Assembly: GCF_002854065.1 (NCBI RefSeq)
Contig: NZ_CP024147.1
From: Escherichia coli
GTDB lineage: Bacteria; Pseudomonadota; Gammaproteobacteria; Enterobacterales; Enterobacteriaceae
Length of the DNA stretch: 64,000 nt
Direction: 5' to 3' (one strand)
Positions 9,613 through 15,736 of the stretch are shown here, piece after piece (position 1 is the first letter of the stretch; each line of letters begins with the position of its first letter). Made by a program: the position numbers and the translations under genes. The notes under the pieces were generated by a model. That model made no database searches and was not told where the DNA came from. It saw only the letters and a program-made list of their open reading frames with translations.

Positions 9613-11007
<1,395 letters not shown>

Positions 11008-11016
11008 TAAAGACAA

Positions 11017-11050
11017 GGCGCAACCTTCACGGGTTGCGCCTGTATTTTTA
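11017..11050. terminator. Bidirectional intrinsic terminator between convergent mdtK and ydhQ
   Basis: Stem GGCGCAACC / GGTTGCGCC with T-rich runs on both strands. Confidence 0.65.
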
Positions 11051-12304
11051 CGCAGGCTGGAGCGTTGCGCCAATCCCGTCTTCGTCTGGCTGTAGTTTCA
11101 GTGCATTACACAGAGTTTGCCGACTGGCATCTGTTATCTCAACGCGTATATCCCCGGTAACTTCCCCTTTCACATTGATGAAGTCAGGTGAAATTTCTTT
11201 CGCACTGGTTTGCAGGCAAATCGCTCCCTCTCCGCGCAGGCGTTTCACTTTCAGTTGCACATGCGTTGCCGCACCAGTGATCAGCCACAGTTTTCCGCCA
11301 TTCAGATTGATGTTACCAATACTGAAAGTGACACTGTCACCTTTTACCGTACTGCCGTCGAGAATCAATACACCGCCCTGCTGTACAGTAATCGTTGATT
11401 GTTGCAGATCTGCGCCATAGCCAATAATCATTGAAGCGCCGTCCAGTAATGCAACACTCCCGGTCAGTTCAACCGGTGCGCGATCTTCCTCTACGACAAA
11501 ATTTTCGTCCGCGCTGGTGGGTGACAACAGGATCACTGTTCCACCTTGTATTACCGCATTTTCCAGCGTACCGGCATGCACTTCAGCCCGACCACCCACA
11601 TTAACGGACAGGTTTTGCGTCTTACCGGAACTGTAGAGCTGAAGACCATCCGTCCCCAGACGATAGATGGCTCCATTCTCAACAATAGTGTCAGAGTCTT
11701 CACCACCGAGATTATTCATGGTGCCACCAGCAAGCAACGTATCATTGGCTTTCCCCGCCAGCATAAAAACGCCGCCCTGATTAATCTCACAATTGCTGGC
11801 TTCCCCACCTGGATACACCAACAATTCACCACCTTCATCTACCACGACCGCTGAGGTTGTCCCATTGACCAACAGGCCGCCCTCTTGATCGAGAATAATT
11901 TTTTCCGCGCGATGGCCTTCCAGTACACGCAGGTTGCCGCCATTTTCCAGCAACAAACCGCAGGCATAACCTTTATCAACGCTGAATTCACCTTCGGGAT
12001 GGCGGCCATTAACCGTAGCGAGCGTAGAGAGACTAATTGCGCCTCCCTCGGACTGAACAATATCTGTGGCAATGGCACCGTCGCTGACCGATAGCGTGCC
12101 ATTGTTATCGTACTGTGTGCATTTGGCGATCCCACCGGTTGCCACTTTCAACCAGCCAGCCCCCGTGACCACGGTATTTTCGGCTCTTCCGCCAGCTTCA
12201 ACAATCAACTCGCCTTCAGTAAGTTGCGTCGCGCCAATGACCTCGCCGGTCTTAACAATTTGCACATTCCCGTCGCTCATCAAGTTTTTCGCATCAGATC
12301 CCAT
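11048..12304 (-). CDS. ydhQ: AIDA-type beta-helical repeat protein (adhesin-related) with no obvious signal peptide or beta-barrel
   Basis: 418-aa ORF with Gly-rich motifs recurring about every 19-20 residues (AGGRAENTVVTG, EGGLLVNGT, QGGVFMLAG, QGGVLILDG, NGGKLWLITG). Confidence 0.8.
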   Translation of the reverse strand: MGSDAKNLMSDGNVQIVKTGEVIGATQLTEGELIVEAGGRAENTVVTGAGWLKVATGGIAKCTQYDNNGTLSVSDGAIATDIVQSEGGAISLSTLATVNGRHPEGEFSVDKGYACGLLLENGGNLRVLEGHRAEKIILDQEGGLLVNGTTSAVVVDEGGELLVYPGGEASNCEINQGGVFMLAGKANDTLLAGGTMNNLGGEDSDTIVENGAIYRLGTDGLQLYSSGKTQNLSVNVGGRAEVHAGTLENAVIQGGTVILLSPTSADENFVVEEDRAPVELTGSVALLDGASMIIGYGADLQQSTITVQQGGVLILDGSTVKGDSVTFSIGNINLNGGKLWLITGAATHVQLKVKRLRGEGAICLQTSAKEISPDFINVKGEVTGDIRVEITDASRQTLCNALKLQPDEDGIGATLQPA

Positions 12305-12556
12305 GATTTATTCCTTTGCTGCATCTGTGTGCCTTTATTGCTACCTAAGTGTAAAGGCTACGGAGGATTTATCCACGACAGATTTGAGATGGTGGCAAAC
12401 AACTCTGTTTAAACTCTGATACACGAATTATTGGGTTGTATCAGATGTAAATGCGATCCTGAATAAAAATCGCCCTTGCAAATCAACAAAATATAGCCAA
12501 TTTGCTTAAAAGCTCTGCAAACGGTCGAAATAGCGCAGAAAATTACGTTTTGCCTC

Positions 12557-12585
12557 TTGCCACCTTCCCACTCTGCCGCTAATAT
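12557..12585 (+). promoter_or_regulatory. Putative sigma70 promoter for the valV-valW tRNA operon
   Basis: TTGCCA, 17-bp spacer, TAATAT, then GC-rich discriminator TCGTCCCC about 25 bp before the first tRNA; A/T-rich tract upstream. Confidence 0.45.
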
Positions 12586-12611
12586 TCGTCCCCGTTGTCA
12601 CCTACAACGTT

Positions 12612-12688
12612 GCGTTCATAGCTCAGTTGGTTAGAGCACCACCTTGACATGGTGGGGGTCGTTGGTTCGAGTCCAATTGAACGCACCA
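12612..12688 (+). tRNA. valV: tRNA-Val (anticodon GAC)
   Basis: 77-nt cloverleaf: acceptor GCGTTCA/TGAACGC, D-arm GCTCAGTTGGTTAGAGC, anticodon loop CTTGACATGG, T-arm GGTTCGAGTCC, 3' CCA. Confidence 0.95.
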
Positions 12689-12692
12689 TCCT

Positions 12693-12769
12693 GCGTCCGT
12701 AGCTCAGTTGGTTAGAGCACCACCTTGACATGGTGGGGGTCGGTGGTTCGAGTCCACTCGGACGCACCA
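12693..12769 (+). tRNA. valW: tRNA-Val (anticodon GAC), second copy
   Basis: 77-nt cloverleaf identical in core to valV but with acceptor stem GCGTCCG/CGGACGC; 4-nt spacer between the copies. Confidence 0.95.
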
Positions 12770-14923: not shown

Positions 14924-15736
14924 TCAGCACTCAACAAACTGATGCTGTTCATTAAGACGATAGCGGACTCCGGCTCGAATATTGTTTTCACCTTCAATGG
15001 CGACGGCGAAACGAACTCTTTCGCCGTCATGATATGCCAGTGCGGCGCTTCCTCCTGGCCCGAGAATAATTGAGTCGACCACGCCCGTGCTCACTACCGT
15101 TGAATTTTCACCGCTGGCAATGATGTGTACATTGTCGCCGCTGTTGACAATTTTGGCGTTTGCGCCAAAGCTGGCGATTTGCACCAGGTCACCATTACTG
15201 GCGACATGACATCGTTCACCCAATGTACAAACGCGTACTCGCATTCCGGTATTCGCAATCCGACTGCTATCTCCAGCGCTGCTTATCCGCGAAGAATTGC
15301 CGGTTACAGCAACCCGTGCGCGCTCACCGGAGCTGCCAATGTGACTGTTAAAGCCGACACTTCCAATCCGCACGCTATAACCCATACTGGCAATTTGTAC
15401 AGCATACCCAGCGGTTGCGATTCTGGCGTTATCCTCACAACAGCCGATGCGAGCATGATCGTCGCTGCGGGCAAACTGACTGCAAAATGCTCTCTCTCCG
15501 GGATCTGTGGCCAGTTTTTGCATAGAGGAAACTTCCTGATGCGCGAAGTTTTCATCCGCCAGCCATTTTTTCCACGCATACTCAACAAGACTCTCCGCCC
15601 AGTCCGTATATCCTTCCTCAATCAGTGCATGATGAATATCAGCATAACTACCGCCGCGCGGGAAATGGCGCAGGAACCAGCGATACATCACCGCTCCGAT
15701 ACGCCATTCTCGCAGGTCTGCTCGTGTAATGATCAT
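14924..15736 (-). CDS. ydhT: Nonapeptide-repeat protein, last gene of the ydhYVWXUT operon
   Basis: 270-aa ORF; residues about 102-218 are at least 13 tandem 9-residue units (YAVQIASMG, YSVRIGSVG, FNSHIGSSG, ...). Confidence 0.8.
   Translation of the reverse strand: MIITRADLREWRIGAVMYRWFLRHFPRGGSYADIHHALIEEGYTDWAESLVEYAWKKWLADENFAHQEVSSMQKLATDPGERAFCSQFARSDDHARIGCCEDNARIATAGYAVQIASMGYSVRIGSVGFNSHIGSSGERARVAVTGNSSRISSAGDSSRIANTGMRVRVCTLGERCHVASNGDLVQIASFGANAKIVNSGDNVHIIASGENSTVVSTGVVDSIILGPGGSAALAYHDGERVRFAVAIEGENNIRAGVRYRLNEQHQFVEC

Follow-up and report, generated by a model that had tools for sequence, protein, structure and literature searches.

The 64,000-nucleotide stretch of Escherichia coli DNA analyzed here (from contig NZ_CP024147.1; the whole stretch is referred to as the window) contains ydhQ, the gene of a 418-residue protein resembling the passenger domains of autotransporters. 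The minus-strand, ATG-started open reading frame (ORF) that the first-pass annotation of the window had assigned to this protein was recovered with exactly the same ends (Table 1). Its product, with the N-terminus MGSDAKNLMSDGNVQIV, matches the NCBIfam equivalog of the YdhQ family (PRK09945/NF007409) from residue 1 to 418 on profile positions 1 to 418 (939.3 bits vs a cut-off of 830), and in 5424 of 5426 complete E. coli genomes the RefSeq annotation reads 'ydhQ: AIDA repeat-containing protein'; the ORF is thus the known E. coli y-gene ydhQ. By megablast, the segment was detected in 5425 of the same 5426 genomes, near full length in 5424 and with 95-100% identity. An apparent 69-bp length polymorphism in EDL933-type matches proved to be an alignment artefact from a duplicated tRNA-Val at the query end, the gene being 1257 bp long in these genomes as well. 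On the 3' side, ydhQ is convergent with mdtK (9634-11007, plus strand), and the 40-bp gap to its stop codon accommodates a single hairpin with a 10-11 bp stem and T-runs on either strand. On the other side, a divergent tRNA-Val pair (12612-12688 and 12693-12769, plus strand) is found 307 bp upstream of the ATG. The first eight residues, MGSDAKNL, are conserved across all orthologues which, together with the conserved Shine-Dalgarno sequence, fixes the start site. A comparison with PADLOC for anti-phage defence gave no match to ydhQ, and a phage origin was rejected, the PHROG matches being unannotated Ag43-like families only.

Table 1. Features of the ydhQ locus; positions refer to the window, residues to YdhQ, and invariance to seven YdhQ orthologues.
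Feature	Position	Strand	Details
ydhQ coding sequence	11048-12304	minus	ATG start, 418 codons and stop at 11048-11050; from the ORF list
N-terminal tail, residues 1-11 (MGSDAKNLMSD)	12272-12304	minus	hydrophilic, predicted disordered (pLDDT <50), 73% invariant
AIDA-type right-handed beta-helix (predicted), residues 12-260	11525-12271	minus	rungs of 18-19 residues
Most conserved block, residues 85-140 (GGAISLSTLATVNGRHPEGEFSVDKGYACGLLLENGGNLRVLEGHRAEK)	11885-12052	minus	82% invariant; 95% around 107-135
Acidic loop, residues 261-280 (SPTSADENFVVEEDRAPVEL)	11465-11524	minus	core predicted disordered (265-274), 85% invariant
C-terminal beta-helix (predicted), residues 281-418, including truncated pertactin/autochaperone-type domain	11051-11464	minus	PF03212 match, residues 330-403, at 11096-11317; colinear with P0135 and Ag43
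GC-rich hairpin, likely bidirectional intrinsic terminator common to convergent mdtK and ydhQ	11016-11041	both	terminator scan, both strands
Shine-Dalgarno sequence AAGGAA	12311-12316	minus	6 nt before ATG; kept in all aligned orthologous loci
Candidate sigma-70-like promoter TGGATA-16 nt-TACACT	12348-12375	minus	at -71; block invariant in alignment; putative, weak consensus
Candidate sigma-32-like promoter GTTTAAA-13 nt-CACCATCT	12387-12414	minus	at -110; putative

The Gly-rich, AIDA-like passenger repeats that had been read from the sequence are present, their 19-residue periodicity being confined to the N-terminal ~60% of the protein. Gly makes up 15.1% of all residues, the Pfam AIDA profile PF16168 matches three stretches (E 3.9e-28), and BLOSUM autocorrelation of residues 1-230 peaks at lags 17, 19, 36 and 54 (z 3.6-4.5 vs 500 shuffles). 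The same analysis returned no 19-residue periodicity peak for residues 231-418, which constitute a junction/autochaperone-like region; here, the Pfam Pertactin profile PF03212 is matched by residues 330-403 over profile positions 2-78 of 121 (E 3.3e-6, 27.5 bits). YdhQ hence displays the imperfect, Gly-rich strand-loop-strand repeats of ~19 residues that distinguish AIDA-I-type self-associating autotransporters (SAAT), and reaches only partial matches to the NCBIfam equivalogs of Ag43/Cah (NF033177) and AIDA-I (NF033176), with 88.7 and 56.4 bits vs a cut-off of 1200. Congruent with the repeats, structure prediction points to the beta-helix proposed in the first-pass annotation rather than to an unrelated fold. 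Already a single-sequence AlphaFold model (predicted local distance difference test score, pLDDT, 69.5) was matched by Foldseek to the passengers of Ag43 and TibA, and AlphaFold2 with an alignment of 17 sequences yielded an all-beta model with a pLDDT of 90.5 and a predicted template modelling score of 0.87. In this model, rungs begin at residues 14, 32, 51, 70 and 89, a spacing of 18-19 residues, and predicted disorder is restricted to residues 1-11 and 265-274 (pLDDT <50). The best structural match is a fragment of the TibA passenger (residues 55-350, PDB 4Q1Q), with Vag8, Hap and pertactin further down, and phmmer against the PDB finds solved passengers of the Ag43 family at E 3e-26 to 3e-22. 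The predicted fold is thus the right-handed beta-helix of classical autotransporter passengers.

The similarity to TibA raises the question of glycosylation. Heptosyltransferases of the Aah/TibC type (BAHT) modify AIDA-type 19-residue repeats in the cytoplasm prior to export, and YdhQ could be a cytoplasmic substrate, decoy or assembly partner of such enzymes: it matches the strand-loop-strand repeat model TIGR04415, 'O_hepto_targRPT', with 45.1 bits vs a cut-off of 30, its top structural match is the TibC-glycosylated TibA fragment, and it is located in the compartment of these enzymes. To our knowledge, BAHT genes are nevertheless found in a minority of E. coli strains (enterotoxigenic and diffusely adherent E. 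coli, ETEC/DAEC) and are absent from K-12, whereas ydhQ occurs universally in E. coli and is retained by further species of the genus. No such enzyme gene adjoins ydhQ, and the role would leave the genus-wide purifying selection described below unexplained; we consider it highly improbable. TibA 55-350 differs from YdhQ in being an engineered piece of a secreted adhesin, investigated as a heptosyltransferase substrate, where YdhQ is a natural, selected product that includes part of the autochaperone region. This leaderless TibA fragment was reportedly produced in folded form in the E. coli cytoplasm.

Classical type Va autotransporters join their passenger to an N-terminal Sec signal peptide, often with an ESPR, to a complete autochaperone domain and, after an alpha-helical linker, to a C-terminal 12-stranded barrel, none of which was found in YdhQ. 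The N-terminus is hydrophilic and devoid of a secretion signal, as had been noted at the outset: no 19-residue Kyte-Doolittle window within positions 1-60 exceeds 0.86, residues 1-39 contain no Arg, the first Cys occurs at position 62, Pfam detects no ESPR in the protein at E<=1, and the published SignalP 6.0 prediction is negative for a cleavable signal peptide (PMC13101318). An in-frame stop lies two codons 5' of the ATG, making an N-terminal extension impossible; an extended or frame-shifted signal peptide was accordingly ruled out, and no frame of the window shows similarity to an ESPR or barrel. The presumed lack of a translocator was equally borne out. The barrel PF03797 has no match in YdhQ at E<=1, and a tblastn search of the entire 64-kb window, with Ag43 and a further three full-length autotransporters as queries, matched strongly only at 11108-12307, without any barrel remnant, mdtK following after the short gap. 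Furthermore, AC_1 (PF18883) was not detected in YdhQ at the same Pfam threshold, and the Pertactin match breaks off at position 78, while full-length relatives cover positions 1-114 or 2-120. With signal peptide, N-terminal passenger portion, alpha-helical linker and 12-stranded barrel all lost, YdhQ cannot export itself by the type V route.

Alignment to full-length autotransporters allowed these losses to be placed. YpjA is the closest K-12 paralogue (phmmer E 4e-55, seven repeat matches), followed by Ag43 (E 2e-25), whereas YcgV and YfaL show no detectable similarity to YdhQ with phmmer and were rejected; the relationship to the yfaL, ypjA and ycgV passengers presumed in the first-pass annotation consequently holds for ypjA alone. 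Residues 26-379 of YdhQ are colinear with 250-602 of K-12 Ag43 (30% identity, E 3e-25), in which the ESPR spans 6-49, AC_1 573-690 and the barrel 766-1015, and colinearity thus stops within AC_1. Analogously, residues 12-416 are colinear with 245-594 of a 978-residue autotransporter (P0135; Pertactin domain 519-634, barrel 717-956), YdhQ ending at the equivalent of its residue 594, and residues 32-392 with 819-1127 of YpjA (188-394 matching 923-1129). Judged from these alignments, YdhQ is the equivalent of the last ~300 passenger residues of the AIDA type plus about the first two thirds of the autochaperone domain. In terms of Ag43 (Flu), it corresponds to the C-terminal half of the alpha-domain and the start of the beta43 autochaperone region, without the ESPR signal peptide, the ~200 additional N-terminal passenger residues, the complete AC_1 and the barrel. 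The Asp551-Pro552 dipeptide of Ag43 aligns near YdhQ residues 326-328; with this dipeptide as the alpha/beta processing site, YdhQ appears to span the junction. An equivalent of Ag43 residues 53-249, which carry the main self-association interface, is absent from the alignment. The two genes differ in setting as well, ydhQ belonging to the chromosomal core and K-12 flu residing on the cryptic prophage CP4-44. YpjA shares only ~28% identity with YdhQ and, at 1526 residues, possesses a signal peptide, a C-terminal translocator and many additional repeat modules.

The loss of both export modules, together with an autochaperone domain cut at profile position 78 of 121, could be taken to mean that ydhQ is the functionless relic of a degraded autotransporter gene that is open by chance, its transcription and translation being mere noise. 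Several autotransporter genes of E. coli K-12 are in decay. Such pseudogenes, for example ydbA, yaiT, ycgH and ydeK, have lost parts required for export and are interrupted by insertion sequence (IS) elements, frameshifts or stops. Unlike these, ydhQ has kept an intact ORF of unvarying length and is subject to purifying selection. Orthologues of 418 residues with the same start and stop are present in an E. ruysiae-like lineage (90% identity), E. whittamii/sp. E4742 (87%), E. marmotae (83%), a further lineage (82%) and E. albertii (80%), and a 419-residue form with 71-72% identity was recovered from a short contig (L001) that retains the tRNA-Val-flanking sequence. Every locus long enough to show neighbours has ydhQ between mdtK and the ydhR side, and start, stop and Shine-Dalgarno sequence are kept in all orthologous loci examined. 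Against the copy in the window, the ratio of non-synonymous to synonymous divergence (dN/dS, Nei-Gojobori) is 0.06-0.13 at dS values of 0.41 to >1 (1.14 for E. albertii), differences to E. albertii amount to 55, 34 and 190 on codon positions 1, 2 and 3, and indels are absent in five of the six orthologues. With 3.1% of single-base changes creating a stop, neutrality predicts 16-44 stops (P of none 1e-7 to 7e-20). The 418-residue cluster comprises 8778 member sequences; truncated variants of 370-403 residues do exist but are few and singletons. The broken or variable frame, the dN/dS near 1 and the patchy presence that mark a pseudogene are therefore not seen in ydhQ. The gene is further compact, with cleanly trimmed flanks and its own terminator, its protein has been detected (PMC6561319) and its expression is regulated (PMC2868799). 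On the other side, no knockout phenotype is known, the Keio deletion having been used as a neutral control and the locus as an integration site (PMC6962156, bioRxiv 10.1101/2023.03.28.534373). In the aggregate, ydhQ is under purifying selection throughout the genus and a decaying remnant is rejected; the relic reading is strongly disfavoured and in our estimate improbable. Conservation of the exact 418-codon form by selection indicates that YdhQ is useful in that form.

Salmonella enterica and Enterobacter have no ydhQ between mdtK and the tRNAs: only ~150 bp separate their mdtK stop from the two tRNA-Val genes, and tblastn found no ydhQ-like sequence there in either, also excluding a full-length autotransporter at the corresponding locus of these sister genera. 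A scan of 1.84 billion protein representatives returned near YdhQ only its own cluster and fragments, the next-best matches being full-length autotransporters of 1000-6000 residues with at most 37% identity, and a motif scan covering a single genome from each GTDB species picked up Escherichia alone. Leaderless YdhQ-like proteins outside Escherichia were not among the 1.84 billion representatives, where, outside the YdhQ cluster, only full-length autotransporters or contig fragments were found; of the short candidates, P0115, P0123, P0137 and P0142 bear signal peptides and P0066 is a fragment of a larger passenger. Thus, ydhQ represents a compact, ~1.45-kb Escherichia-specific insertion reaching from the mdtK terminator to the valV promoter. 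A foreign base composition was not seen (GC ~51%), and the gene appears ameliorated, apparently with no surviving close full-length relative. As a separate observation, synonymous divergence does not run in parallel for ydhQ and adjacent mdtK across species: in the comparison with E. albertii, ydhQ has a dS of 1.14 and mdtK one of 0.67, and with the E. ruysiae-like lineage the values are 0.41 and 0.67, respectively, hinting at recombination or at differing mutation or codon-bias regimes at this junction.

To assess how YdhQ departs from its secreted relatives, its composition was compared with 218 homologous secreted passenger segments from 105 proteins. Charged residues (DEKR) account for 18.7% of YdhQ, within the top 1.4% of the distribution (10.2 +- 3.8%), whereas Ser, Thr and Asn together reach 19.6%, within the bottom 2% (31.0 +- 5.1%). 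Leu is raised to 10.5% from 5.4% in the passenger segments, and Glu to 6.9% from 2.7%. Net charge as such does not set the protein apart, falling only at the 12th percentile of the segments, the outlier being the total charged fraction; relative to the matching Ag43 segment (isoelectric point, pI, 5.9; net charge -4), YdhQ is nevertheless clearly more acidic (pI 4.4; net -26). The composition of YdhQ has thus shifted away from that of secreted passengers. Conservation, computed by region over the seven orthologues, averages 60% invariant positions, and is concentrated in three segments (Table 1), with 41-62% invariant in the remaining beta-helix. The block at residues 85-140 is a hairpin-bearing module that also occurs in Ag43 and in the recurring units of large AIDA-type autotransporters, and is the stretch best aligned to the Ag43 structures and to the repeated units of one such protein (P0026); congruently, the lowest dN in YdhQ is found at residues 71-140 (0.013-0.039). 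At the acidic loop, P0135 shows a 9-residue gap. Segments that are disordered yet conserved are typical of interaction motifs; extended to YdhQ, this would make the loop at 261-280 a candidate linear interaction motif.

Where the protein is located has been addressed with reporter fusions in a recent study (PMC13101318, 2026), in which YdhQ is termed a 'leaderless autotransporter'. Without a signal peptide, a pFAST-YdhQ fusion was fluorescent and cytoplasmic, and an agarase fusion was inactive, while with a foreign signal peptide both reporters behaved as exported (PMC13101318). That study claims 'surface display' of the latter, although YdhQ has no barrel for insertion into the outer membrane, a point on which the paper is silent. 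The assays employed, agarase halos and a membrane-permeable fluorogen, do not separate periplasmic, leaked and surface-anchored YdhQ, and are therefore no proof of outer-membrane insertion. The exported behavior is nonetheless relevant for an alternative, according to which YdhQ is still an extracellular or surface adhesin that leaves the cell by a non-classical route and modulates adhesion or aggregation, for example by docking on Ag43-type helices. Lysis or outer-membrane vesicles, the flagellar type III apparatus via the disordered N-terminal tail, or the barrel of another autotransporter acting in trans could serve as routes. Its fold is that of self-associating autotransporter passengers, residues 1-11 are conserved despite being disordered, members of COG3468 including YDHQ appear in vesicle proteomes (PMC10458587), ydhQ is stated to be required for early adhesion and listed among positively selected biofilm genes (PMC9110714), and a peak in genomic systematic evolution of ligands by exponential enrichment (gSELEX) for the flagellar regulator FlhDC falls into the ydhQ-valV spacer (sequence beginning AACGGTCGAAATAGCGCAGAA; PMC9962212). 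Against such a role stand the missing signal peptide, linker and barrel, the cytoplasmic retention of fusions without a signal peptide, the departure in composition from secreted passengers and the absence of an equivalent of Ag43 53-249; moreover, the gSELEX site lies beside the valV promoter, ~230 bp from the ydhQ start. On balance, we regard an adhesin as unlikely. The earlier work behind the adhesion label, by Roux and colleagues (2005), reportedly found adhesion for only yfaL, yeeJ, ypjA and ycgV, and not for ydhQ, upon induction of ten Ag43 homologues. The annotation labels 'adhesin' and 'autotransporter', and the biofilm roles attached to ydhQ, are unsupported by the architecture of the protein.

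Two candidate promoters were identified upstream of ydhQ. The sigma-70-like TGGATA/TACACT pair ranks first or close to first among sigma-70 matches, with unchanged position, in six of the seven orthologous upstream regions scanned, and its hexamers are unchanged in E. albertii, though outside the two best sigma-70 matches there; with 8/12, its score does not exceed that of shuffled sequences. The sigma-32-like candidate agrees at 11 of 14 positions with CTTGAAA/CCCCATNT, which 15 of 300 shuffles attained as well, and the loci of E. marmotae, E. whittamii and sp. E4742 bear comparable motifs at the corresponding position. No sigma-28 (flagellar) promoter better than shuffles was found upstream of the gene. 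Consistent with the sigma-32-like candidate, ydhQ mRNA rises together with heat-shock genes, namely with dnaJ, grpE, lon, hslR, ycjF, ycjX and yhdN, during misfolding stress elicited by a single-chain variable fragment (scFv; PMC2868799). YdhQ has also been quantified in proteomes, with a 5.5-fold change in response to vanillin (PMC6561319), and ydhQ is a predicted CsrA target (PMC5389547). With respect to the spacer itself (12305-12611), the valV-proximal half (about 12455-12560) is almost invariant across Escherichia species, and holds the FlhDC gSELEX sequence as well as a sigma-70-like TTGCCA-17-TAATAT facing valV. A ~20-bp insertion in the spacer marks the 71%-identity lineage. The gene is reportedly also listed in the sigma-32 regulon of Nonaka et al. 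(2006).

Aggregated, these findings favor YdhQ being a functional, soluble, cytoplasmic right-handed beta-helix derived from a passenger of the Ag43/YpjA/TibA (AIDA-I) type, a reading to which we assign a probability of roughly 60%. The first-pass annotation had offered either an autotransporter remnant or a cytoplasmic beta-helix protein with another role; the latter is supported by the low dN/dS, a frame that is nearly never disrupted, detection in proteomes and the cytosolic fusions, whereas the former survives only as a description of the origin. An ancestral passenger would have lost signal peptide, N-terminal passenger, linker and barrel to give leaderless YdhQ, which may act as a rigid, acidic binding scaffold in the cytosol, with the hairpin module at 85-140, the disordered residues 1-11 and the acidic loop at 261-280 as candidate contact sites. 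The gene would be transcribed from its own promoter and induced alongside the heat-shock/misfolding response. By analogy only, pentapeptide-repeat proteins (Qnr/MfpA) and bactofilins are rigid, repetitive and often acidic cytosolic beta-helices that serve as binding surfaces or mimics and not as enzymes. Partners are probably to be sought in the translation/RNA machinery, as YdhQ co-purified with elongation factor Tu (EF-Tu; PMC2672614) and is among 17 unannotated RNA-binding proteins cross-linked to RNA in orthogonal organic phase separation (OOPS; bioRxiv 10.1101/2023.07.03.547468).

Several observations weigh against a cytoplasmic function. The cytosolic location was observed with tagged fusions and not with native, untagged YdhQ, and the same reporters behave as exported when supplied with a foreign signal peptide. 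Both the EF-Tu and the OOPS associations stem from high-throughput experiments, EF-Tu often turns up as a contaminant, and direct RNA binding is unlikely for a protein of such acidity. The sigma-32-like motif is only marginally better than chance. The deletion is without known phenotype, as outlined above, and the adhesion/biofilm label with positively selected sites, for which PMC9110714 cites earlier work, points elsewhere. Lastly, the dN/dS of ydhQ (~0.1) is five-fold above that of neighboring mdtK (~0.02 in the same Nei-Gojobori comparison), indicating that the constraint is moderate. The case for a specific role, drawn as it is from high-throughput data, is weak. The further-reaching proposal that the passenger was domesticated in the Escherichia ancestor into a stress-induced cytoplasmic factor for the translation/RNA machinery or protein homeostasis, operating via the invariant hairpin module together with both of the conserved, disordered and acidic motifs, is put forward tentatively, as a possibility on the doubtful side.

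The oddity of ydhQ as such is already known: the gene has long been catalogued, earlier publications report the lack of a signal peptide and the cytosolic folding, and the domain matches readily show that the barrel is missing. New here are the genus-wide purifying selection and the Escherichia-specific insertion at the mdtK-valV site, as well as the precise placement on Ag43 and YpjA, the shift in composition and the conserved disordered motifs. Passengers are regarded as strictly extracellular and as folding only after export; YdhQ would represent a natural counter-example that folds in the cytosol and has been kept by selection throughout the history of the genus, demonstrating that the passenger fold can be recruited to an intracellular role. 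That a type V passenger should have left a conserved descendant inside the cell is modestly surprising, and the idea can be tested directly. Should the domesticated stress factor prove true, YdhQ would be the first protein of autotransporter descent to work inside the cell. A gene universal in E. coli is moreover routinely deleted as a "neutral" locus, a practice that needs a caveat if YdhQ acts in stress or translation. Being compact and soluble, the protein also offers a model for secretion-free beta-helix folding.

The surroundings of ydhQ vary between lineages as well. In Salmonella enterica (L013, 6363-6835), Salmonella pathogenicity island 2 (SPI-2; ssaU and other type III secretion system, T3SS, genes) starts just 3' of a tRNA-Val(GAC) pair of the type flanking ydhQ, and in Enterobacter the pair is followed by unrelated genes (HSP20, GlgS-like and fragments of a type VI secretion system, T6SS). 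The mdtK-valV-valW region is a hot-spot for lineage-specific DNA, on either side of the tRNAs. E. coli, E. marmotae, the E. ruysiae-like lineage and sp. E4742 (E. whittamii) carry a 534-residue ydhS (NAD_binding_9) that is absent from E. albertii (L002, 2251-3432), where a ydhT-like gene comes directly after ydhR. YdhT of the window (14924-15736, minus strand; 270 residues) consists in its C-terminal half of short Gly/Ser-rich repeats (SSGERARVAVTGNSSRISSAGDSSRIANTG, NGDLVQIASFGANAKIVNSGDNVHIIASGENSTVVSTG), and shows a weak tblastn match to the autotransporter passenger P0026 (978-1057, E 0.46). It looks like a second leaderless solenoid or beta-helix protein, encoded 3 kb from ydhQ.

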